DNA of 64,000 nt. Source: an uncultured Chloroflexia bacterium (lineage in GTDB: Bacteria; Chloroflexota; Limnocylindria; Limnocylindrales; CSP1-4). The notes under the pieces are model-generated. The model saw only the letters and a program-made list of their open reading frames with translations, searched no databases and was not told the origin of the DNA. This document shows, one piece after another, positions 6,036 through 45,453 of this stretch; position 1 is the first letter of the stretch, and each line of letters begins with the position of its first letter. Both the position numbers and the translations under genes were made by a program. The DNA lies in assembly GCA_963835945.1 (NCBI GenBank), contig CAWIHR010000068.1:2325-66324 (forward strand), read 5' to 3'.

Positions 6036-7760
6036 ATGCGAAGACTGTTGGGGACCCCCGCTTCGAGCGGGGTCGCACGGGGACCCTGGGCTCGCGTCGA
6101 GGCGCCGCGCGAGCCGGAGACGCGCGAGATCCTTCCCGCGCAGGCCACGGCGGAGCGCGCCCTGCTGGGCGCGGCGGCGGAGCGTGCGGCCGCCGAGCTC
6201 GAGGCGATCGGGGAGCAGGTCGCCGCGGAGGGGCACCCGGAGGAGGGGGCCATCTTCGACGCCCAGGCGCAGATGGCGCGGGATCCCGCGCTCGCCTCGC
6301 TGGCGGAGCAGGCCATCGAGGAGCGACACCTCGACGCCGTCGGGGCGGTCCTCCAGGCGGGACGTGAGCTGGCCGAGCAGCTGCGTGGGCTCGGTGACGA
6401 ACTGCTCGCGGCCCGGGCGGCCGACGTGGCCGACGTCGCTCTGCGGATCGCCCGCCGAGCCGCTGGCGTGCCGGACCCCGGCCTGCCGCGCCTGGACGTG
6501 CCGGCCATCGTGGTCGCCGAAGACCTGCCGCCGTCCGTGACCGCTACCCTTCGCCGGGATCGTCTCCTGGGGTTCGCTCTGGAGTCCGGCTCAGCCACCG
6601 CGCACGCCGCGATTTTGGCGCGTGCCTACGGGATTCCGGCCGTTGTTGGGGTGCAGGGGCTCCTGTCCGCGCTGGCTCCCGGCGACCTCGCGATCGATGG
6701 CAGCACGGGCGAGGTCTTCATCGAGCCCGACGCCGCGGCCAGCGCCGAGCTCGAGCGGCGCGCCGAGCAGTCGCAACGCGCGGACGCGCAGGCGCGCAGT
6801 GAGGCGTCGCTGCCGGCGATGACCCGCGACGGGGTCGAGATCACGCTGCTGGCCAATATCGGGACTCCCGACGAGGCGTCCCGCGCCGTGGCGCTCGGAG
6901 CCCGGGGCGTGGGCTTATTCCGGACGGAGTTCCTCTTCATGGAGCGCGCGAGCGAGCCGACGGAGGACGAACAGGCGGCGGCGTACCGGGCCGCTGTCGA
7001 GGCCTTCTCGCCGTACCCGGTGACCATCCGACTGCTCGACGTCGGCGGGGACAAGCCCATCCCGTACCTGCCCATGGCTCCGGAGGCGAACCCGTTCCTC
7101 GGCGTGCGCGCCCTCCGGCTGGCGGCCACACGACCCGACATCTTCCTAGCCCAGCTGCGCGCGACGATGCGGGCCGCCGTGGCGGGGCCCGTGAACGTCA
7201 TGGCGCCGATGGTCGCGGATGCCGGCGACGCTGCCACGCTGCTGTCCCTCGCGGCGCAGGCCCGCGCCGAGCTTGAGAGGCGGGGCGAAGCGTTCGCTCC
7301 CGTCGGGCTCGGTGTAATGCTCGAAATCCCCGGGGCGATCCTCGTCGGCGACAGCTACTTCGGGCGCCTCTCGTTCGCCAGCCTGGGCACGAACGACCTG
7401 CTGCAGTACACGCTCGCCGTCGACAGGGGGAACCCGGACCTCGCCCGGTACCAGGACTCCCTCCACCCCGCGCTGCTGCGCCTCGTGCGCGAGGCCGTCG
7501 AGCGGGCCGACCGCGCCGGGATCGAGCTGTCCGTCTGCGGCGAGATGGCGGGCGACCCCGCGGCCGCGCTGGCGCTGGTGGGTATGGGGATCCGCAAGCT
7601 CAGCATGGCAGCGAGCAGCCTGGCCGCCGTCCGGCGCGCCATCCGCGGTGCGGACGAGGCGCGGGTGCGCGAGGAGGCGCGCGCCGCGCTCGAGGACCTG
7701 TCGGCGGCCGCGGTCCGCGCCCGGTTTGGCGCGCTGGTCGGTGGACGAGACGGCGCCTAA
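6036..7760 (+). CDS. ptsI: Phosphoenolpyruvate-protein phosphotransferase (PTS Enzyme I)
   Basis: Motifs seen are GTPASSGVARG, the phospho-His region GSATAHAAILARAYGIPAVVG, GLFRTEFLFM, and SLGTNDLLQYTLAVDRGN with CGEMAGDP. Confidence 0.9.
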   Translation: MRRLLGTPASSGVARGPWARVEAPREPETREILPAQATAERALLGAAAERAAAELEAIGEQVAAEGHPEEGAIFDAQAQMARDPALASLAEQAIEERHLDAVGAVLQAGRELAEQLRGLGDELLAARAADVADVALRIARRAAGVPDPGLPRLDVPAIVVAEDLPPSVTATLRRDRLLGFALESGSATAHAAILARAYGIPAVVGVQGLLSALAPGDLAIDGSTGEVFIEPDAAASAELERRAEQSQRADAQARSEASLPAMTRDGVEITLLANIGTPDEASRAVALGARGVGLFRTEFLFMERASEPTEDEQAAAYRAAVEAFSPYPVTIRLLDVGGDKPIPYLPMAPEANPFLGVRALRLAATRPDIFLAQLRATMRAAVAGPVNVMAPMVADAGDAATLLSLAAQARAELERRGEAFAPVGLGVMLEIPGAILVGDSYFGRLSFASLGTNDLLQYTLAVDRGNPDLARYQDSLHPALLRLVREAVERADRAGIELSVCGEMAGDPAAALALVGMGIRKLSMAASSLAAVRRAIRGADEARVREEARAALEDLSAAAVRARFGALVGGRDGA

Positions 7761-32659: not shown

Positions 32660-32763
32660 CGCTGGCAATCGTAGCGGGACGCCAATAAGAAGCCGTGAAG
32701 GCCTTCCCTTCCGGCGACCCGTCCTGGCGCCTGCCCGCACCGCCTCCCGGTACAATCGCCGCC

Positions 32764-34020
32764 ATGCCTCTCGTCGTCCAGAAGTACGGCGGCTCGTCGC
32801 TTGCCGACGCCGACCGCATCCGCCATGTCGCCGGCCGCATTGCCGAGGAGCGTGCCACTGGCTCGTCGCTGGTCGTCGTGGTGAGCGCCATGGGTGACAC
32901 CACGGACCACCTGATCGAGCTGGCTCGGGAGATCACGCGTGACCCGGATCCCCGCGAGATGGACCGGTTGCTCGCCATCGGCGAATTCCAGAGCTGTGCC
33001 CTCGTCACGATGGCGCTGCACACGCTCGACGTGCCCGCGATCTCGCTGACGGGCGCGCAGGCCGGCATCCGCACGGACACCGCACACGGCCGTGCCCGCA
33101 TCGCCAACGTCGACCCCGCCCGGATCGTGCGCGAGCTCGAGGCCGGGAACGTCGTGATCGTTGCAGGGTTCCAGGGTTCGACCGACGACAGCCATACCAC
33201 GGGGGAGATCACCACGCTCGGGCGCGGTGGCTCCGACACGACGGCCGTCGCACTCGCGGCGCGCCTCGGCGCTGACCGCTGCGAGATCTTCACGGACGTC
33301 GAGGGGATCTTTACGGCCGACCCCCGCATCGTCCCGGACGCGCGGCTCCTGCCGGTGATCGGCTACGAGGAGATGCTCGAGCTGGCGCACCAGGGCGCCC
33401 AGGTCATGCAAACGCGCGCCGTCGAGCTCGGCTGGGTGAACGACGTCGAGATCGCGGTGCGGTCCACGTTCAGCGATCACCCCGGGACGCGCATCAAGGA
33501 GGACCCCGACGTGGAGCAGCGCAACAAGGTGCGTGGCCTCGCGAGTGACCGGAACGTCGCCAAGGTGACCGTGGTCGCCGTTCCGGACCGCCCGGGCATC
33601 GCGCGGAGCGTCTTCGCGCCGCTCGCCAACGACGGGATCAACGTCGACATCATCGTGCAGAACGTGGGGCACGAGGGGACGACCGACCTGTCGTTCACGG
33701 TGCCGCGCTCCGACCTCGACCGCGCCCGCCGGCTGCTCGAGCCGGTCGTTCGGGAGATGGGGGCACGCGAGCTGGTGGCGGACGAGTCGGTGGCAAAGGT
33801 GTCGATCGTGGGCGCCGGGATCCAGAACGCGCCGGGGTATGCCGCCCGCATGTTTGGGACGCTGGCCGACGAGGGAATCAACATCGAGATGATCTCCACG
33901 TCGGAGATCCGGATCACCTGCATGATCAACGAGTCGGAGCTCGAGCGGGCCTCACGAGCGCTCCATCGGGCGTTCCAGCTGGAGCGGCCTGAGCCCGAGG
34001 TGGCGAGCGCGTCCCACTGA
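32764..34020 (+). CDS. ask: Aspartate kinase
   Basis: MPLVVQKYGGSSLAD, VVVVSAMGDTTD, GRGGSDTTAVALA and tandem ACT domains at the C-terminus are present. Confidence 0.95.
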   Translation: MPLVVQKYGGSSLADADRIRHVAGRIAEERATGSSLVVVVSAMGDTTDHLIELAREITRDPDPREMDRLLAIGEFQSCALVTMALHTLDVPAISLTGAQAGIRTDTAHGRARIANVDPARIVRELEAGNVVIVAGFQGSTDDSHTTGEITTLGRGGSDTTAVALAARLGADRCEIFTDVEGIFTADPRIVPDARLLPVIGYEEMLELAHQGAQVMQTRAVELGWVNDVEIAVRSTFSDHPGTRIKEDPDVEQRNKVRGLASDRNVAKVTVVAVPDRPGIARSVFAPLANDGINVDIIVQNVGHEGTTDLSFTVPRSDLDRARRLLEPVVREMGARELVADESVAKVSIVGAGIQNAPGYAARMFGTLADEGINIEMISTSEIRITCMINESELERASRALHRAFQLERPEPEVASASH

Positions 34021-34023
34021 TCC

Positions 34024-34875
34024 GTGGAGGAGTGCGGCACAGCGGACCCTTGGGGCGACCCGGTGATCGAGCCCGCTTCCGAACCAGATGCCCGGGCGCA
34101 GCCATTTCCCGCGCGGCTCGAGCGTTTCGGTCGCGTCGCCTCAACCCAGTCGATCGTCGCCGGCTGGCTCGTGGCAGGCGAGCCCGACGTCTGTGTTGCG
34201 GTGGCCGATGAGCAGGAGGCAGGCCGGGGACGGCGTGGCCGGTCCTGGACTGCACCATCCGGCACCGCGCTCCTCCTCTCGGTCGGGTTTCGGCCGGCGT
34301 GGTTGCTGCCGGCCGATGCCTGGAAGCTGGCCGCGATCGTCGCGCTGGCGATGACCGACGCTGCCGAGGACGCGGCAGGCCTTCGCAACGGCACGCTCGG
34401 CCTCAAGTGGCCGAACGACCTGGTCGCGCCGGCTCCAGACGGCGGCCTTCGCAAGGTCGCGGGCGTGCTTGGCGAGTCGACGGTCCTGAACGGCTGGCTC
34501 GATACCGTCGTGGTCGGGATCGGCGTGAACGTGCAGTGGGCCGCGGCCGACTTTCCACCTGACCTGGCTGCCGGCATGACCAGCCTCTCGGAGGTATCCG
34601 GGGGCCGGCCCGTCGATCGCGACGCCCTGCTCGTCGGCTTCCTCGACCGGCTGGAGCCGCGACTCGAGGCGCTGCGAGGCGGACGGTTCGACGCCGGCGG
34701 GTGGGACGAGCGGCAACGGACGACCGGCCGCCGGGTGACGGTCGAGGTCGGCGGCCGCGAGATCGAGGGCATCGGCGAAGGGGTCGATTCCGGGACCGGC
34801 GTGCTGCTGGTCCGCACCGCGGAGAGGACCGTGCCGGTAGACGCGGGCGAGGTGGTCCGCTGCCGCGTGGCTTGA
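34024..34875 (+). CDS. birA: Biotin--[acetyl-CoA-carboxylase] ligase
   Basis: STQS, EQEAGRGRRGRSWTAPSG and LKWPNDLV are present. No N-terminal HTH is evident. Confidence 0.8.
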   Translation: MEECGTADPWGDPVIEPASEPDARAQPFPARLERFGRVASTQSIVAGWLVAGEPDVCVAVADEQEAGRGRRGRSWTAPSGTALLLSVGFRPAWLLPADAWKLAAIVALAMTDAAEDAAGLRNGTLGLKWPNDLVAPAPDGGLRKVAGVLGESTVLNGWLDTVVVGIGVNVQWAAADFPPDLAAGMTSLSEVSGGRPVDRDALLVGFLDRLEPRLEALRGGRFDAGGWDERQRTTGRRVTVEVGGREIEGIGEGVDSGTGVLLVRTAERTVPVDAGEVVRCRVA

Positions 34876-34933
34876 CGGAGGCCTGGCAGGGGGCGATCGG
34901 CGCGGGCGGCCGCGTAACAAGTAGACTGCGGCG

Positions 34934-35554
34934 GTGTTGAGGAAGGTAAGTGGTCGAGACGAGGAGGCCCTCGTCGTGTTCGACCCGGATCGGCCCGCGG
35001 TTGAGGCTGCCCGCCGCGACCCCAGCCGGTTCGAGACGCTGTATCGAAGGTACGTGGCCCAGGTCTACAGCTTCGCGGTCTACGAGCTTGCCGACCATCA
35101 CGCCGCCGAGGACCTGACCGAGCAGGTCTTCCTGCAGGCGCTGGCCGCGCTACCGCGCTTCCGGGAGGTACCGCGCGCGACGGGAACGTCGAGCTTCCGC
35201 TCGTGGCTGTTCCAGATCGCCCGGCACCTAGCGAGCAACGAGCGCCGGGCGGCTCGAAGGCACCCGATCGCCCCGCTCGACGCCGCCCTCGATGTCTCCG
35301 GCCAGGACGACCCGGCCGCGGCATCCGCCCGCCGCGACGAAGCGACACGTGCCTGGCGGGCGGTGGACCGCCTTTCCGCCGACCGGCGCACGGCCGTGAT
35401 CCTGCGTTTCGTCGACGAGATGTCGATCCCGGAGATCGCCGGCGTCTTGGGCCGATCGGAAGGGGCGGTGCGGGTCCTGCTGCACCGCGCGCTGCGGAGC
35501 GTCTCTGACGAGCTCCGGGAGCCGGGGGCACAGGCCCGCGGGGACGCCAAGTGA
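34934..35554 (+). CDS. ECF-type RNA polymerase sigma factor
   Basis: Region 2 reads FETLYRRYVAQVYSFAV..AEDLTEQVFLQAL. Region 4 reads RTAVILRFVDEMSIPEIAGVLGRSEGAVRVLLHRALR. Confidence 0.85.
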   Translation: MLRKVSGRDEEALVVFDPDRPAVEAARRDPSRFETLYRRYVAQVYSFAVYELADHHAAEDLTEQVFLQALAALPRFREVPRATGTSSFRSWLFQIARHLASNERRAARRHPIAPLDAALDVSGQDDPAAASARRDEATRAWRAVDRLSADRRTAVILRFVDEMSIPEIAGVLGRSEGAVRVLLHRALRSVSDELREPGAQARGDAK

Positions 35555-35922
35555 CAGACGTCCAGGACGACCTCGACCTGCGCGACCCAGAGCTTGCCCA
35601 CGCCGCCGAGGTGCTGTCTCGCAGCCTCGTGCGCTTTCATCCCTCGTTCCGTTTCGAAGAGGGACTCGCCGCACGGCTGCGACGCGCAGCCTGGCCCCGT
35701 GCGGTGCCCGCCGACCTCGAGGAGCCGCGGACGGCGTTGGTGCCGATGCCGCGAGTCCGTGCCTTTCCCCTGCCCGTCGCCCTCGAGCTCGCCGCGCCCG
35801 CGTCGTTCGGGCGTGTCGTCGGGCGGGTCCCTCGTCCCGTGCTCGTCGGAGGCGCCATCGCGTCAGGCATGTCGATCGCCGGAGCCGTCGTCGCCTGGTG
35901 CCGGCTGCGGAAGGACGCCTGA
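35551..35922 (+). CDS. Putative anti-sigma factor (single C-terminal TM helix)
   Basis: The GTG overlaps the sigma stop (GTGA). It is 123 aa with the helix VLVGGAIASGMSIAGAVVAW near the C-terminus. No zf-HC2 motif is present. The assignment is by position only. Confidence 0.4.
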   Translation: MTDVQDDLDLRDPELAHAAEVLSRSLVRFHPSFRFEEGLAARLRRAAWPRAVPADLEEPRTALVPMPRVRAFPLPVALELAAPASFGRVVGRVPRPVLVGGAIASGMSIAGAVVAWCRLRKDA

Positions 35923-38087
35923 TGCCGATCAACCTCCCCTTCCTCCCCCGGCGCCGCGAGTTCCCACCCGACCAGTGGACCCAGTGCCCAAGCTGCGGCG
36001 AGATGCTCTACAACAAGCAGCTCGAACGCAACTCGCGTGTCTGCGCCAAGTGCGGCCATCACTTCCGGCTTCGGGCGGAGGCCCGCCTCCGATTGCTCCT
36101 GGACCCTGATTCGTTCGAGGAGCATGACACCGGCCTCGAGTCCAACGACCCGCTGGGCTTCGTCGACCTGAAGACCTATCCCGACCGGCTGGCGGCCGCC
36201 CGAATCTCGAGCGGCCTGCGTGACGCCGCCGTCTGGGGAGTCGGACGGATCGACGGCCAGCCCGTGGCGATGTGTGTGATGGACTTCGCGTTCATCGGCG
36301 GGTCCATGGGTTCGGTGGTGGGTGAGAAGGTGGCTCGGGCGGCTGAGCACGCGCTGCAGGCCCTGATGCCGCTCGTCATCGTGTCGGCGTCCGGCGGGGC
36401 GCGGATGCAGGAGGGCACGCTCGCCCTGATGCAGCTGGCCAAGACCTGCGCGGCGCTCGAGCGGCTGGCGGCCGCCGGGATCCCCTACGTCAGCGTCATG
36501 ACCGATCCGACCACGGGCGGTGTCTTCGCCTCGTACGCCGTGCTCGGTGACGTCAACCTCGCCGAGCCTGAGGCACTCATCAGGTTCGCCGGCGAACGCG
36601 TCACCAGCGGGACCATCGCCGTCGAGTTGCCGCCCGACTACCAGCGCGCCGAGTTCCTGCTCGAGCATGGCTTCCTGGATCGGGTGGTGCCGCGCGACCG
36701 GCTGCGCGACGAGCTGGCCACGATCCTGGGCTACCTGCGGGAAGGGTCGCCGTGTTCCAGCGCGCCGCTTCCGGCCGGGTCCCTCGCCGCACGCGCCGCC
36801 GGTGACGGGCGCGAGCCCGGCTTCCGACCGTTCGGTTTCCTGAACACGAAGCTGCCCAACCTGCCGGTGCTCGAGGCCGGAAGGCGTGGGGCGGCGGCGC
36901 TCGGCGCGCATGCGGCCGAGGTGATCGGTGCCTACGCCGGCACCGGTGACGCGACGGGCGCGGGGCAGGCTGCCGCGGGTGTATCGGGCGACAACGGGAC
37001 CCCACCGTTCGGCGGCGCCAGCAGGCCGGGCCGCCAACCCGGCGGGGGCGTGGGCTCCGCGGGCGTCGCAGGCGGGGCATCTGCCGGCGCCGCCGTGTCC
37101 GTGTCGTCGCAGCCCCCCGACGCCGCAGCGCAAGAACGGGCGTGGGCGCGCGTCCAGGCGGCTCGCAACGTAAAGCGGCCGCACACGCTGGACCTCGTCC
37201 GCGCCATGGCCACCGACGTCGTGGAGCTCCACGGTGACCGGCTCTTCGGCGACGATCCCGCGATCGTGACCGGCCTCGCGCGGATGCCCGGCCACGCGTT
37301 CGTGTTCGTGGGACACCAGCGCGGCTCGGAGACGGATGAGAACATCCGCCGCAACTTCGGCATGGCGCACCCTGAGGGGTACCGCAAGGCGATGCGCCTA
37401 TTCCGGCTGGCGGAGCGCTTCCACCTGCCGATCGTCACGTTCGTCGACACCGGCGGCGCCTATCCGGGCCCCGCGTCCGAGGAGCGCGGCGTCGCCGAGG
37501 CGATCGCCCGCTCGATCGCCGTCATGAGCGGCCTCCGCACGCCAATCGTCAGCGTCATCACGGGAGAGGGCGGCTCGGGCGGGGCGCTTGGGATCGCCAC
37601 CGCGGACGTTGTGCTCGCGCTGGAGAACGCCGTCTACTCGGTGATCAGCCCAGAAGGTTGTGCGAGCATCCTCTGGCGGGACCCTGCCGCTGCACGACAG
37701 GCGGCTGCGTCGATGCGGATGACGGCCCAGGACCAGCTGGCGCTTGGCGTCGTCGACGAGGTCGTGGGCGAGCCGGCGGGCGGCGCGCAGGAGGATCCCG
37801 TGGCGATGGCAGCGACCCTCGCGACCCGGCTGTCGGAGCACCTCGTTCGGCTCGAGGCGCTGCCACTCGATGAGTTGCTCGAGCGCCGCTACGCGCGCTA
37901 CCGGAGCATGGGTGCGTTCACCACCGTTGAGCGCGAGATGCCCCCGGCCGTGAAGCGTCCCGACCTCGCCGGTCGCCTGCGCGACCTGATCGAGGCCGGC
38001 CGGGCGACCCTCGGCGTCCCCGAGGGCGGCCCCACGCGACCAGTCGTCGGGCCCGACGTCGACGCGCCGCTGCGGGAGGACCTGTAA
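35922..38087 (+). CDS. accDA: Acetyl-CoA carboxylase carboxyltransferase, fused beta (AccD) and alpha (AccA) subunits
   Basis: The N-terminal Zn-ribbon is CPSCGEMLYNKQLERNSRVCAKCGHH, followed by an AccD body (FIGGSMGSVVGEK). A Gly/Ala-rich linker of about 130 aa follows. Then comes the AccA body (RPHTLDLV..ELHGDRLFGDDPAIV..FGMAHPEGYRKA..TFVDTGGAYPG). It is a single uninterrupted ORF. Confidence 0.85.
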   Translation: MPINLPFLPRRREFPPDQWTQCPSCGEMLYNKQLERNSRVCAKCGHHFRLRAEARLRLLLDPDSFEEHDTGLESNDPLGFVDLKTYPDRLAAARISSGLRDAAVWGVGRIDGQPVAMCVMDFAFIGGSMGSVVGEKVARAAEHALQALMPLVIVSASGGARMQEGTLALMQLAKTCAALERLAAAGIPYVSVMTDPTTGGVFASYAVLGDVNLAEPEALIRFAGERVTSGTIAVELPPDYQRAEFLLEHGFLDRVVPRDRLRDELATILGYLREGSPCSSAPLPAGSLAARAAGDGREPGFRPFGFLNTKLPNLPVLEAGRRGAAALGAHAAEVIGAYAGTGDATGAGQAAAGVSGDNGTPPFGGASRPGRQPGGGVGSAGVAGGASAGAAVSVSSQPPDAAAQERAWARVQAARNVKRPHTLDLVRAMATDVVELHGDRLFGDDPAIVTGLARMPGHAFVFVGHQRGSETDENIRRNFGMAHPEGYRKAMRLFRLAERFHLPIVTFVDTGGAYPGPASEERGVAEAIARSIAVMSGLRTPIVSVITGEGGSGGALGIATADVVLALENAVYSVISPEGCASILWRDPAAARQAAASMRMTAQDQLALGVVDEVVGEPAGGAQEDPVAMAATLATRLSEHLVRLEALPLDELLERRYARYRSMGAFTTVEREMPPAVKRPDLAGRLRDLIEAGRATLGVPEGGPTRPVVGPDVDAPLREDL

Positions 38088-38879
38088 GTGGACGACCCGC
38101 TGCGGACACTCGACACCGAGGCGATCGTGGAGCCGCCAGCCGACCCGACGGATACCGTGCGGCCACCAGAGACGATCTTGCGGCTGGCCGACGACCTGCT
38201 CCCGGCCCTGATCGCCCGGCTCGACGCCAGCGGTTTGGGCGAGCTCGAAGTGCGCACCGCCGCCTGGCGCATCCGGCTGCGGAAACCGTACGACCGGCGC
38301 CACACGCTGCCGCTGCCCGAAGGACGCCGCCGGCGTGGTGGCGCGTTCGAGGTCGAACGGGCGGTGCGTGTGGACACGCGGGGCGCTGGCCCCGGCAGGT
38401 CGCAACACGGCGAGTCGGGCCGCGCTGACACTGACCGGGGCACCCTGGTCGACAGCAGTCATGCCACTGGCATCGGCCACAGCGTCCGTCGCTCCGAAGG
38501 TCGCCTCGACGTCGGCTCGGCCGGCGTCGGCGTTGACGTCGGCGGTGATCTCGACGCGAGCGCCAATCCCGCGAGCCCGGCTGACCTGTCCGTGCCTGCC
38601 ATCGCCACATCGCCCGCGGTCGGGTACTTCACGCCGCGCGAGGGGTGGACCACTGGCCGACATGTCCTGAGCGGCGACGTGGTTGGCTATGTCGACTGCC
38701 TCGGCGTCCGCCAGGACGTGGTTGCGCCCGCGGACGGGTTCTTAGGTCGCCTTCTTGCGCGGGCGGGGGAGGCCGTTGAGTACGGCCAGCCGCTCGCCCA
38801 TGTCGACCTGCCGCTGCCCGGCCCCGCCGCGTCCGCGCCCCCGAACGAGGCCCCGATGACCGGGTCGGAGGGAACCTAA
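38088..38879 (+). CDS. BCCP-like protein lacking the biotinyl-lysine (biotin-attachment-domain paralogue)
   Basis: The N-terminus LADDLLPALIARLDASGLGELEVRTAAWRIRLRKP and the C-terminal hammerhead SPAVGYFTP..GDVVGYVDCLGVRQDVVAPADGFL..AGEAVEYGQPL align with BCCP. The E-A-M-K position reads D-C-L-G. Confidence 0.65.
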   Translation: MDDPLRTLDTEAIVEPPADPTDTVRPPETILRLADDLLPALIARLDASGLGELEVRTAAWRIRLRKPYDRRHTLPLPEGRRRRGGAFEVERAVRVDTRGAGPGRSQHGESGRADTDRGTLVDSSHATGIGHSVRRSEGRLDVGSAGVGVDVGGDLDASANPASPADLSVPAIATSPAVGYFTPREGWTTGRHVLSGDVVGYVDCLGVRQDVVAPADGFLGRLLARAGEAVEYGQPLAHVDLPLPGPAASAPPNEAPMTGSEGT

Positions 38880-38880
38880 G

Positions 38881-40245
<1,365 letters not shown>

Positions 40246-40263: not shown

Positions 40264-40773
40264 ATGACCGACGACCAGGCGAGGCCCGCGACGGCGGGCG
40301 ACCGGGCGCCCTCGCAGGCCGCCGACGTGACCCTCACGACACGCGAGATCGAGGCCCTCATCCCGCACCGCTGGCCGTTCCTGCTCGTCGACCGGATCGT
40401 GGAGTACGACCCTGAGCACAGCCGGATCGTGGGCCAGAAGGCCGTGACCTCCACGGAGTGGTTCTTCCAGGGCCATTTCCCCGGCCAGCCCGTCATGCCC
40501 GGCGTGTTGCAGCTCGAGGCGCTCGCCCAGACCATGGCGGTCTACGTCGCGAAGCAGCCCGGCTACGGCGACACGATGGGCCTCTTCGCGAGCATCGATG
40601 AGTGCCGCTTTAGGCGGATCGTCGTTCCCGGGGACACGCTTCGACTGGAGATCACGATGGAGAAGCTCGGCCGACGGTTCGGCAAGGGCCGCGCTGTCGC
40701 GAGCGTGGACGGCGAGGTCGCCTGTGAAGCCCTCCTCGCCTTCATCATCCCGCCGCCCGGCACGCTTCGCTGA
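40264..40773 (+). CDS. fabZ: 3-hydroxyacyl-ACP dehydratase FabZ
   Basis: IPHRWPFLLVDRI and FFQGHFPGQPVMPGVLQLEALAQ are present. Confidence 0.9.
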   Translation: MTDDQARPATAGDRAPSQAADVTLTTREIEALIPHRWPFLLVDRIVEYDPEHSRIVGQKAVTSTEWFFQGHFPGQPVMPGVLQLEALAQTMAVYVAKQPGYGDTMGLFASIDECRFRRIVVPGDTLRLEITMEKLGRRFGKGRAVASVDGEVACEALLAFIIPPPGTLR

Positions 40774-40790
40774 CGGCCCACGAGGAGACC

Positions 40791-41534
40791 ATGACGACCC
40801 GTATCGTCCTGCTGTCCGACATCCACGGCAACATCGCTGCGCTCGACGCCGCCCTCGCCGACATGCGTCGCGAGGCGCCCGACGTAGTCGCCGTGCTCGG
40901 CGACTACGTCATGAACGGCCCCCGTCCGGCCGAGGTGGTGGACCGGGTGCGCGAGCTCGAGGTACAAGGCGCGGCCGTCATCCAGGGCAACACGGACATC
41001 GCGGCCGCCGACCTCGACCTGGCCGCGGCATTCCCGTGGTTCGATGAGGTACCCCACGTCAACGTGGTGGCGGCCGAGTGGGCGCACGACCAGCTCGGCG
41101 ACGAGCGGCTCGACTGGCTGCGCCGCCTGCCGGCCGAGCGCCGCCTGCGGGTCGACGGCACCCTCGTGCTCTGCTGCCATGCCTCGCCGGGAAGCCAGAC
41201 CTACGGGTTCGGCGCGGACGTCGACGCGGCCACGGTCGTGGAACGGCTGGCGCGCACAGACGCGCGGATCGTGACGGTGGGGCACACGCACATGGCGGAC
41301 GTGCGGGACCTTGGCTGGAAGCAGGTGATCAATCCCGGGTCGTGCGGGTATGCGTTCGACGGCGACGCGGACGCTGCGTGGGCGCTGCTCGAGATCGACG
41401 GCGACGACGTGCGTGCCGAGCTGCGCCGCTCCGCCTACGACACGCGCCAGGTGAGCGACGAGCTATCCGAGCGCGGGCTTGCGGGCGACGTCTACCGTGC
41501 CGCAACCGTCCGCACGGGGCGCTACGTCCGGTGA
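40791..41534 (+). CDS. Metallophosphoesterase (YfcE/MJ0936-like)
   Basis: LLSDIHGN, VLGDYV, GNTD and VGHTH metal-ligand motifs occur in the canonical order. Confidence 0.75.
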   Translation: MTTRIVLLSDIHGNIAALDAALADMRREAPDVVAVLGDYVMNGPRPAEVVDRVRELEVQGAAVIQGNTDIAAADLDLAAAFPWFDEVPHVNVVAAEWAHDQLGDERLDWLRRLPAERRLRVDGTLVLCCHASPGSQTYGFGADVDAATVVERLARTDARIVTVGHTHMADVRDLGWKQVINPGSCGYAFDGDADAAWALLEIDGDDVRAELRRSAYDTRQVSDELSERGLAGDVYRAATVRTGRYVR

Positions 41535-41556
41535 GGCCAGCAAGACCGTATCCGAC

Positions 41557-42963
<1,407 letters not shown>

Positions 42964-43468
42964 TGACGAGCGCAGTCACGGTCGAGACGCGGCCCGAGGG
43001 CGGGTCCCTGGCCGATGCACCGGGAGGGCGCGGCGAGGTGAGGGCAGCGGGCGAGCGAAGGAGCCCGGACTCGGCGGGCACGGATCGGTCGGGTGCAGGT
43101 GGTGCGGGGTCCGATCGTGACCCGGGGGCGGAACAGGCTCGCGCGGCCGGCGGCGTCCAGACGGCGGGCGGTGCTGCCGCGGCCGACGACGACAGCGCGG
43201 ACACGATCCGCGGACACGCCGTGATCGCGCCGCTGACGGGCGTCTTCTACGGCGCCCCATCGCCGGGCGCCGCGCCGTACGTCACGGTTGGCACCGAGGT
43301 CGTGCCCGGCCAGGTGATCGGGCTGATCGAGGCCATGAAGCTATTCAACGAGATCAAGAGCGACGCGGCGGGCCGGGTGGTCCGCATCCACGCCGCCGAC
43401 GGTGCGCTCGTGCGGGCGAAGGAACCGCTGATCGAGCTCGAGCCATCCTGAGGGGGAGCGAGGGGACC

Positions 43469-44623
43469 ATGCAGCCACGCAGCGCGCGGATCACGGGATG
43501 GGGCCACTACGCCCCGGACCGGATCCTCACCAACGAGGACCTGTCCACGCTCGTGGATACCTCCGACGAGTGGATCCAGTCCCGCACCGGGATCCGGGAG
43601 CGGCGGGTCGCCGCCCCTTGGGAGTCCACTGCCACGCTCGCCTCCGTGGCCGCCCGCCGCGCGCTCGCCGTCGCCGACCTCGACGCGGCCGAGGTGGACA
43701 TGATCCTGGTGGCCACGGTCACGCCCGACTACGCATTCCCGTCAACGGCCGCCCTCGTCAAGGAGGCGGTCGGCGCGTCGCGGGCCGCGGCCATGGACGT
43801 GGCGGCGGCCTGTTCCGGGTGGGTGTACGCGCTTACCGCTGCGCACGCCTACATCACCAGCGGCATGTACCGCACAGTGCTGGTCGTGGGCGCTGAGGCG
43901 CTGTCGCGGGTGTGCGACTTCACCGACCGCAACACCTGCGTGCTGTTCGGTGACGGCGCCGGGGCCGTCGTCCTGCAGGCGTCCCAGGAGGCCGGCGGGG
44001 GCCTGCTCGGCTTTGAGCTGACGGTCGACCCGAGCGGCGCGTACAACATCTGGATCCCGGCCGGGGGCAACCGCAACCCCGTGACGGAGGATACCGTCGA
44101 GCGCCGCGGCCACTTCATCCGGATGGACGGGCGCGAAACGTACCGCTACGCGACGCGCACGCTCGCCCGCTCGGCGCTCACCGCGATCGAGCGCGCCGGG
44201 CTGACCGCCGACGACATCTCGCTGTTCGTGCCCCACCAGGCCAACATCCGCATTATCGAGTCGGTCGCGAAGCAGCTCGGCCTCGCGATGGACCGCGTGT
44301 ACGTCAACGTGGATCGCTACGGCAACACGTCCGCGGCGTCCGTGCCGATCGCCCTGTCAGAGGCCGTCGAGCGGGGCCGCGTCCATCCGGGAGACCGGCT
44401 CGTGTTCGTGGCGTTTGGCGCCGGCTACACGAGCGGCGCGGCCGTCCTCGAGTGGACCGCCGATCCGTCCGCGTCGTCGCGCGCCGAGGCGGTCGGCCCC
44501 GACGTGTCCATTCATCAGCCCGGGGACTGGGTCGGGGACGACCCGACCCCGGTCGCGCTTCGACCGTTCTTCGCGGCGAATGAGGCCGCTCATCTGCGGC
44601 CGGTCGCCCCCGAGCCCGTGTAA
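43469..44623 (+). CDS. fabH: 3-oxoacyl-ACP synthase III with a C-terminal extension of about 50 aa
   Basis: SDEWIQSRTGIRERR, the active-site AACSGWVYAL, VPHQANIRI and GNTSAASVP are present. Confidence 0.9.
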   Translation: MQPRSARITGWGHYAPDRILTNEDLSTLVDTSDEWIQSRTGIRERRVAAPWESTATLASVAARRALAVADLDAAEVDMILVATVTPDYAFPSTAALVKEAVGASRAAAMDVAAACSGWVYALTAAHAYITSGMYRTVLVVGAEALSRVCDFTDRNTCVLFGDGAGAVVLQASQEAGGGLLGFELTVDPSGAYNIWIPAGGNRNPVTEDTVERRGHFIRMDGRETYRYATRTLARSALTAIERAGLTADDISLFVPHQANIRIIESVAKQLGLAMDRVYVNVDRYGNTSAASVPIALSEAVERGRVHPGDRLVFVAFGAGYTSGAAVLEWTADPSASSRAEAVGPDVSIHQPGDWVGDDPTPVALRPFFAANEAAHLRPVAPEPV

Positions 44624-44692
44624 CCCGTACAGTTCGCGCATCGAGACCCGCACCGCGTCCCCCGGGTCCGAGACGGCATCGAGCGTCCGACG

Positions 44693-44938
44693 GAGGTGTC
44701 CGCGTGATCGATCTGTCCGACAAGAGCGCCATCGTCACCGGCGGTGCGCGCGGAATCGGGCGCGCCATCGTGCTACGCCTGGCTCGCCAGGGCGCGGACA
44801 TCGCGTTCCTCGACCGCGGGCCCGTCGAGAGCGCGGAGGCGACCCGCGGCGACGTGGAGGCGCTCGGCCGGCGCTGCTTCTGGGTCGAGGGCGATGTGAG
44901 TGACCCGGAGGCGGCCCCCGCGCTCGTCGCGCGCACGG
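44693..44938 (+). repeat. Direct repeat copy 1 (246 bp: 11 bp upstream plus the first 78 codons of fabG)
   Basis: It is identical to 48207-48452 at a constant offset of 3514 nt, except for two substitutions (ctcgaccgcggg versus ctggaccgaggg). Confidence 0.9.
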
Positions 44939-45453
44939 TCGAGACGTTCGGCCGGCTCGACATCCTGGTCAACAACGCCGGCGTGACTCGCGACGACCTG
45001 ATCATGCGGATGAGCCTGGACGAGTGGCGCACCGTGCTCGAAGTGAACCTCTTCGGCGCCTTCTACGCGACGAAGGCAGTCCTGCGGCCCATGCTCCGGG
45101 CGCGCTCCGGGCGCATCGTCAACATCTCGAGCGTGTCGGGTCAAGCCGGCCAGGCGGGTCAGGCGAACTACTCGTCGTCGAAGGCCGGGCTGATCGGCCT
45201 GACGAAGGCCACCGCGCGCGAGGTCGGCAGTCGCGGCATCACCTGCAACGCGATCGCCCCCGGCTTCGTCACCACCGACCTGACGCGCGACCTGCCTGAG
45301 GCGCTCCAGTCGCAGTTGCTGGCGCAGACCCCGCTGGGCCGCTTCGGAGCGCCGGACGAGATCGCCGCCGCGGTGGCGTTTCTCTGCTCCGACGAGGCCG
45401 CGTTCATCACCGGACAGGTGCTGGCGGTGGACGGCGGCCTGGTGATGATGTAG
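44704..45453 (+). CDS. fabG: 3-oxoacyl-ACP reductase
   Basis: VTGGARGIGRAI, NNAGV, and the SDR catalytic region SSVSGQAGQAGQANYSSSKAG are present. Confidence 0.9.
   Translation: MIDLSDKSAIVTGGARGIGRAIVLRLARQGADIAFLDRGPVESAEATRGDVEALGRRCFWVEGDVSDPEAAPALVARTVETFGRLDILVNNAGVTRDDLIMRMSLDEWRTVLEVNLFGAFYATKAVLRPMLRARSGRIVNISSVSGQAGQAGQANYSSSKAGLIGLTKATAREVGSRGITCNAIAPGFVTTDLTRDLPEALQSQLLAQTPLGRFGAPDEIAAAVAFLCSDEAAFITGQVLAVDGGLVMM

Follow-up and report, generated by a model that had tools for sequence, protein, structure and literature searches.

The acc locus of the window

The DNA analysed here (the window) is a stretch of 64,000 nucleotides (nt) from contig CAWIHR010000068.1 of the genome assembly GCA_963835945.1, which belongs to an uncultured bacterium of the Chloroflexota, class Limnocylindria. 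The gene under study lies at positions 38088–38879 on the plus strand, among the genes of acetyl-CoA carboxylase (ACC). It is an open frame with a GTG start and a TAA stop, and encodes a paralogue of 263 amino acids (aa) of the biotin carboxyl carrier protein (BCCP, AccB) that is devoid of the biotinylation lysine. This lysine-less "pseudo-BCCP" is labelled X in the following. Upstream of X lies accDA (35898–38087, plus strand), a fusion of accD and accA in which the β and α parts of the carboxyltransferase (CT) are encoded by a single 729-aa open reading frame (ORF), as recognized by the Pfam models Zn_ribbon_ACC, Carboxyl_trans and ACCA and by TIGR00515 and TIGR00513. Downstream lies accC (38881–40245, plus strand), the gene of the biotin carboxylase (BC), which also starts with GTG and scores 635 bits against NF006367. 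X is wedged between the two, in agreement with an initial annotation that was made from the sequence alone and that placed the gene between those of the carboxyltransferase and the biotin carboxylase.

The TAA stop codon of accDA (38085–38087) immediately adjoins the GTG of X at 38088, and a single nucleotide separates the stop codon of X from the GTG of accC at 38881. Shine-Dalgarno motifs are located 8 nt 5′ of both start codons, GGGAGG (38074–38079) for X and GGAGGG (38867–38872) for accC. Judging from the TAA|GTG junction and these two motifs, accDA, X and accC appear to be translationally coupled. A minus-strand ORF of 421 aa (37398–38663) and other long antisense ORFs overlap the X gene, as is typical of frames that arise by chance where the GC content is high. 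The plus-strand frame of X is supported by homology as well as by the ratio of nonsynonymous to synonymous substitution rates (dN/dS), both of which are described below.

Fold, lost lysine and conservation of X

The initial annotation had described X as a protein with the N-terminal segment of BCCP and a C-terminal biotinyl-domain fold, in which the E-A-M-K biotinylation motif reads D-C-L-G. The strings on which the fold had been recognized are located at residues 175–181 (SPAVGYF), 196–202 (GDVVGYV) and 230–236 (VEYGQPL). Between the last two, D-C-L-G replaces E-A-M-K at the tip of the hairpin (residues 203–206, encoded at 38694–38705 on the plus strand), with L205 and G206 being invariant in the family. 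The sole lysine of the whole protein is K66 in the N-terminal part, and the biotinyl-like domain contains no lysine at all. The reading of the motif is confirmed.

In a BLASTP comparison with the window's own AccB, GYVDCLGVRQDV of X is aligned to GLIEAMKLFNEI of AccB with 27% identity (E 7e-5). A hidden Markov model search with X as a single sequence did not suffice to confirm the fold: the score is 18.7 bits for PF00364, with a gathering threshold of 22.1, and 24.1 bits for TIGR00531, with an equivalog cut-off of 115.2. PF00364 matches are precomputed for many relatives of X. The true AccB of the window is also under the TIGR00531 cut-off (88.3 vs 115.2 bits), which indicates that this model is strict for this lineage. 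The single-sequence scores being sub-threshold for Pfam and NCBIfam, X could be placed only with a profile of its family and a model of its structure.

The profile of X, derived from 64 homologues, matches the full-length AccB of E. coli (4HR7_B) with an E-value of 2e-16, the N-terminal segment included; in particular, the alignment covers residues 29–55 of that chain, which belong to the N-terminal BC-interaction module. An AlphaFold2 model was built with the 64-homologue alignment. In this model, residues 26–66 (38163–38285, plus strand) form an AccB-type module consisting of a helix (residues 26–48) and a β-hairpin (residues 52–65), which aligns with E. coli AccB and has a predicted local distance difference test (pLDDT) score of 87–88. 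The module carries the conserved block RLAD..LP.LIARL..S.LGELEVR...WR.RLR and is, by eye, ~48% identical to the N-terminus of the AccB of a relative. Its homologue in AccB is the N-terminus, which interacts with the biotin carboxylase. It is followed by a disordered linker rich in Arg, Gly and Asp (residues 67–168; 38286–38591, plus strand; pLDDT 42–61), the length of which varies in the family, and then by the biotinyl-domain fold without its lysine (residues 169–241; 38592–38810, plus strand), which is modelled with a pLDDT of 96–98. The best match of the model in the PDB is the biotinyl domain of E. coli BCCP, 1BDO (Foldseek, TM-score 0.79, root-mean-square deviation 1.8 Å), and further Foldseek matches are 2EVB, 4HR7 and 9A87; Arabidopsis BCCP1 is among the other BCCPs that come after 1BDO. 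The resemblance of X to BCCP is far more than chance would produce, and both the N-terminal segment and the C-terminal fold initially assigned to X are borne out by the profile and the model.

X and AccB (TIGR00531; 1BDO, 4HR7) share the same architecture, namely a module at the N-terminus for interaction with BC, a flexible linker and, at the C-terminus, a biotinyl domain folded as a flattened β-barrel, and the gene of X lies directly upstream of accC, which is the classical position of accB. In contrast to AccB, where the biotinyl-lysine is presented by an (E/V)-A-M-K-(M/L) hairpin, X has D-C-L-G at this place. Moreover, the linker of X is Arg/Gly-rich whereas that of AccB is Ala/Pro-rich, the thumb between strands 2 and 3 is 4–6 residues shorter in X than in either the window's AccB or E. 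coli AccB, and a genuine AccB coexists with X in the same operon. Having no biotinyl-lysine, X fails as a functional AccB.

The homologue search with X returned 745 matches, and the lysine is missing in all of the 120 that were listed. In a representative library, the family accounts for 163 clusters at 50% identity (E ≤ 1e-30), and the lengths of its members range from ~150 to 360 aa. The tetrapeptide at the hairpin tip follows the pattern x-x-L-G in 245/245 members, most often as DVLG (148), followed by DCLG (44), EVLG (19), DLLG (13), DMLG (10) and others. The domain is entirely free of lysine in 196 of these 245 members, and the maximum share of lysine in any column of the family alignment is 44%. 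A lysine elsewhere in X that could serve as an alternative biotinylation site was considered and ruled out, given the lysine-free domain and the lack of a conserved lysine column in the family.

Selection on X was estimated against the relative L001, which is 82% identical. With dN/dS values of 0.075 (N-terminal module) and 0.055 (C-terminal domain), compared with 0.06 for accC, both folded modules are selected as strongly as a catalytic subunit. The values for the linker, the tail and the whole gene are 0.57, 1.36 and 0.43, respectively.

Distribution and relatives of X

According to the source names, the X family belongs to Candidatus Limnocylindria/Limnocylindrales (Chloroflexota). Among public runs, metagenomes from peat come closest. 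A strong match to X was found in 33/33 sampled Limnocylindria genomes, with 96–240 bits, and the order accD/accA-X-accC is kept in 58/58 loci from metagenome-assembled genomes. The complete order of the locus is (aspK-birA-sigma/anti-sigma)-accD-accA-X-accC-fabZ-(metallophosphoesterase)-fabF-accB-fabH-fabG, and an accB with the EAMK motif is located 4.5–5 kb downstream in all the 45 loci (of the 58) that reach far enough. Conserved upstream of the operon is birA (34024–34875, plus strand), which encodes a class I biotin protein ligase with PF03099 and PF02237 only and no helix-turn-helix domain. The supposed link of X to a fused accDA did not hold, because 47 of the 52 X-bearing loci have accD and accA as two genes and just five have them fused. 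The fusion in the window, the two parts of which are joined through a ~130-aa linker rich in Gly and Ala, is the minority state.

The assembly to which the window belongs is 85.7% complete and contains a single biotin carboxylase match, accC. ACC therefore appears to be the sole biotin-dependent carboxylase of the organism, and it is the only obvious partner for X. The small AccB-type BCCP genes seen in the assembly are only the window's accB and X, other PF00364 matches being left aside, and X is the only lysine-less copy in this genome.

Of 99 Chloroflexota genomes outside Limnocylindria, at least 73 have a best match to the X profile that is without the lysine. The tetrapeptides of these relatives include DVLG, EALN, EVLN, QSLN, ESLN, EALQ and others, and the AccB-type N-terminus is kept. 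Two gene contexts were examined in detail, and both read pepP-efp-[lysine-less BCCP], with xseA next in one of them. Chloroflexota genomes with the efp-linked gene also carry canonical EAMK BCCPs and accC elsewhere. In the genome of the window, the order is pepP-efp-xseA; efp and xseA are only ~46 nt apart, and the slot that holds the lysine-less paralogue in other Chloroflexota has no gene in it (locus L249, contig C18, 117773–121327).

In Armatimonadota, the lysine is missing in 20 of the 30 best matches (LALG, FALG, QAMG, EALG and others); the lysine-less sequences of this phylum are among those of L105, of L107 near position 7001, and of L219–L248. The gene with LALG (L105, 6806–7213) is located just 5′ of accC-nusB, with a small unannotated ORF of 125 aa in between. 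Like X, the efp-linked paralogues of Chloroflexota and the accC-linked ones of Armatimonadota combine the N-terminal module of AccB with a biotinyl fold, and in their hairpins Met is changed to Leu and Lys to Gly, Asn, Arg or Gln. Different from X, the efp-linked paralogues are encoded between efp and xseA, away from the acc genes, are ~135–190 aa long and score no higher than 87 bits with the X profile, compared with 96–240 in Limnocylindria.

A maximum-likelihood tree was calculated from 88 sequences and 128 columns. In this tree, the X proteins of Limnocylindria form a clade with a support of 100, one split, with a support of 93, has all lysine-less proteins on the same side, and the AccB of Limnocylindria clusters with the other Chloroflexota AccBs. 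After masking of the hairpin and realignment with MAFFT, the support is 58 for the same split and 92 for the X clade. A single origin of the lysine-less proteins is suggested by these trees, not established. In a literature search that did not extend to several key papers, no description of lysine-less BCCP paralogues from bacteria was found.

X as a candidate subunit of acetyl-CoA carboxylase

ACC catalyses the committed step of fatty-acid synthesis, and the bacterial enzyme is regarded as a four-protein machine. With moderate confidence, we propose that X is a functional, non-biotinylatable paralogue of AccB that serves as a non-catalytic subunit of the only ACC of the cell. In the proposed mechanism, X would be made together with the carboxyltransferase and the biotin carboxylase, and would use its retained N-terminal module to occupy BCCP sites on AccC and/or to pair with AccB, giving rise to mixed AccC-AccB-X subcomplexes. 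Because X is unable to carry carboxybiotin, it could only shape the assembly, the stoichiometry or the activity of the complex. Its tight coupling to accDA and accC, together with its universal presence, makes us lean towards a constitutive role in assembly, as a scaffold or "glue", rather than a conditional brake. As a probable non-catalytic fifth subunit of ACC, X would have a role previously described only for plant BADC.

In three papers (PMC11926652, PMC12706156, PMC13585458), the BADCs are described as proteins of heteromeric ACC that bind BC and BCCP and take no part in catalysis. The first of these papers calls BADC "unique to the plant htACCase", and describes BCCP-like subunits that are not biotinylated as confined to plant plastids. 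By description, X is similar to the BADCs of plants and green algae (Arabidopsis BADC1–3) in being a BCCP homologue of ~25–30% identity that has no biotinylation motif and coexists with a true BCCP. Unlike BADC, X is bacterial, is encoded inside the acc operon and is apparently coupled in translation to CT and BC. Since X nests among the lysine-less AccB paralogues of Chloroflexota and Armatimonadota, its origin is probably independent, and X is analogous to plant BADC but probably not orthologous. The term "BADC-like" of the initial annotation is apt as an analogy, for a lysine-less BCCP homologue beside a true BCCP, and probably does not extend to descent. As for the regulatory or scaffolding subunit that was suggested along with it, the sequence premises stand, and purifying selection and class-wide presence are as expected of a working subunit, while the likeness to BADC contributes only by analogy.

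Another parallel is offered by the ε subunits AccE and PccE of the actinobacterial acyl-CoA carboxylases, which one paper describes as small non-catalytic assembly "glue" (PMC11926652). As in the proposal for X, their genes neighbour those of the carboxylase, and they take no part in catalysis. The ε subunits have an unrelated fold and are not known to be homologues of BCCP.

A first alternative, which we consider unlikely yet worth serious attention, is that X is a competitive brake. X would compete with holo-AccB for AccC and titrate ACC down, and the X:AccB ratio or a signal, such as pH or acylated acyl carrier protein (acyl-ACP), would set the effect. Competition for one site is plausible in view of the homologous N-terminal modules of X and AccB, and the location of accB 4.5 kb further down the operon would make a separate tuning of the ratio possible. 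Plant BADCs are likewise described, in two papers (PMC13585458, PMC12706156), as competing with BCCP for BC. However, in a third paper BADC is a "glue" that promotes BC-BCCP assembly, a role towards which experiments with the plant protein in vitro are reported to point (PMC11926652). The coupling of X to the catalytic subunits and its presence in every genome of the class also fit a constitutive subunit better than a brake.

Several observations weigh against X being a subunit of ACC. Among the 12 wider gene contexts of lysine-less relatives that were inspected, 11 are from outside the class, and in those 11 no acc genes are nearby. As the relatives in the inspected loci lie by efp/xseA and far from the acc genes, the X family may have had an ancestral role that was not tied to ACC. 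A new binding function, one that is not predicted by the model of an ACC subunit, could be the reason why the thumb is shortened and why the new hairpin, D-x-L-G-V-R-Q-E/D-V, is strongly conserved. In addition, the X gene was found in none of the RNA runs searched.

It is conceivable from these observations, although quite improbable, that X has an adaptor role independent of ACC, inherited from efp-linked ancestors, and that it came to lie in the acc operon through no more than a historical relocation. The relatives outside the class are found by efp (and xseA) with no accC nearby, the empty efp-xseA slot in the genome of the window suggests that the gene moved, and the hairpin has taken on a new form that is itself conserved. 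On the other hand, the linkage of efp and accB is an old arrangement for the genuine accB in many bacteria, and given this old linkage the efp context is no clue to function. Also against an adaptor role, all copies retain the AccB-type N-terminal module, and X has kept its position between accA and accC throughout Limnocylindria.

We give little credence to X being a regulator of expression or a decoy, which would autoregulate the operon via its N-terminal domain, or bind BirA or PII proteins without being consumed. E. coli AccB, as James and Cronan reportedly found in 2004, represses accBC through its N-terminal domain, and this self-repression is a precedent for the first version. For the second, birA is conserved just upstream, and PII proteins are reported to bind BCCP (PMC12706156). 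However, the BirA of the window is of class I and has no DNA-binding domain, which makes a BirA-repressor circuit unlikely; the sequence of X gives no hint of nucleic-acid binding; and the constraint on the entire biotinyl-like domain exceeds what a function of the N-terminus only would need.

It is hardly credible that X is still a carrier with a catalytic part, bearing its modification on a different residue or a cofactor other than biotin: its fold and hairpin are strongly conserved, but lysine is absent from the domain of X and from that of 196/245 relatives, no lysine column is conserved, Cys204 occurs in just 44/245 members, and the tip residue is an invariant Gly. Just as hard to credit is a decaying, functionless duplicate of accB, for which the scores below the curated Pfam and TIGRFAM cut-offs might speak, and which is countered by the dN/dS of 0.055–0.075 in both folded modules, by the intact ORF in 33/33 genomes and 58 loci, and by the 163 clusters at 50% identity. 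Between them, selection and distribution in effect refute the reading of X as a pseudogene or relic.

Beyond the window, we tentatively put forward a broader scenario, about which we are more doubtful than convinced. Pseudo-BCCPs might be old, perhaps single-origin, non-catalytic subunits of ACC across Chloroflexota and Armatimonadota, in which case the multi-subunit ACC of these phyla would consist of five components. In Limnocylindria, the gene would have left the efp-xseA slot for the acc operon, and plant BADC would be a convergent re-invention rather than a novelty of plants. A bacterial counterpart of BADC such as the proposed X, conserved, under strong constraint and part of the operon, would show that "dead carrier" subunits arose in bacteria too, and five genes plus one ligase would provide a simple, recombinantly tractable system for the dispute over whether BADC is a glue or a brake. 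The annotation of the X-family proteins, to which databases give the name of a working biotin carboxyl carrier protein or else of a hypothetical protein, would be corrected as well.

Canonical accB and the other genes of the operon

The canonical accB of the window (42835–43451, plus strand) has its EAMK motif at 43329–43340 and scores 47.7 bits for PF00364 and 88.3 bits for TIGR00531. A canonical AccB had been predicted about 4 kb downstream of X; the motif is indeed there, at a distance of ~4.5 kb, whereas the start of the gene is out of frame as assembled. Compared with the relative L001, an extra A at ~42817 abolishes the TGA stop codon of fabF, which reads on to 42963, and one base is missing near 42860, at codon 10 of accB, the two sites being ~43 nt apart. 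Due to the one-nucleotide deficit, the ATG of accB at 42835 (MTTTNELLA...) is out of frame with the EAMK-containing body in this assembly. If the frame break were real, the organism would be left without a normally initiated AccB. It may be an assembly error. The exact strain of the window is present in none of the public runs searched, which contain only related strains as contigs, and in one such contig, from a peat run, both sites are in the intact state.

The rest of the operon (40264–45453, plus strand) consists of fabZ (40264–40773), fabF (about 41557–42963), fabH (43469–44623) and fabG (44704–45453), in addition to accB. Between fabZ and fabF lies a gene for a calcineurin-like metallophosphoesterase (40791–41534, plus strand), which is found at this place in most loci of the class and is missing from most loci of the EMLG-type subclade (L083–L103). 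Directly upstream of accD (32695–35922), an aspartokinase, the class I birA, a sigma factor of the extracytoplasmic function (ECF) type and a small ORF are encoded throughout the class. In the window, this small ORF, a putative anti-sigma factor, is located at 35551–35922 and overlaps the start of accDA.
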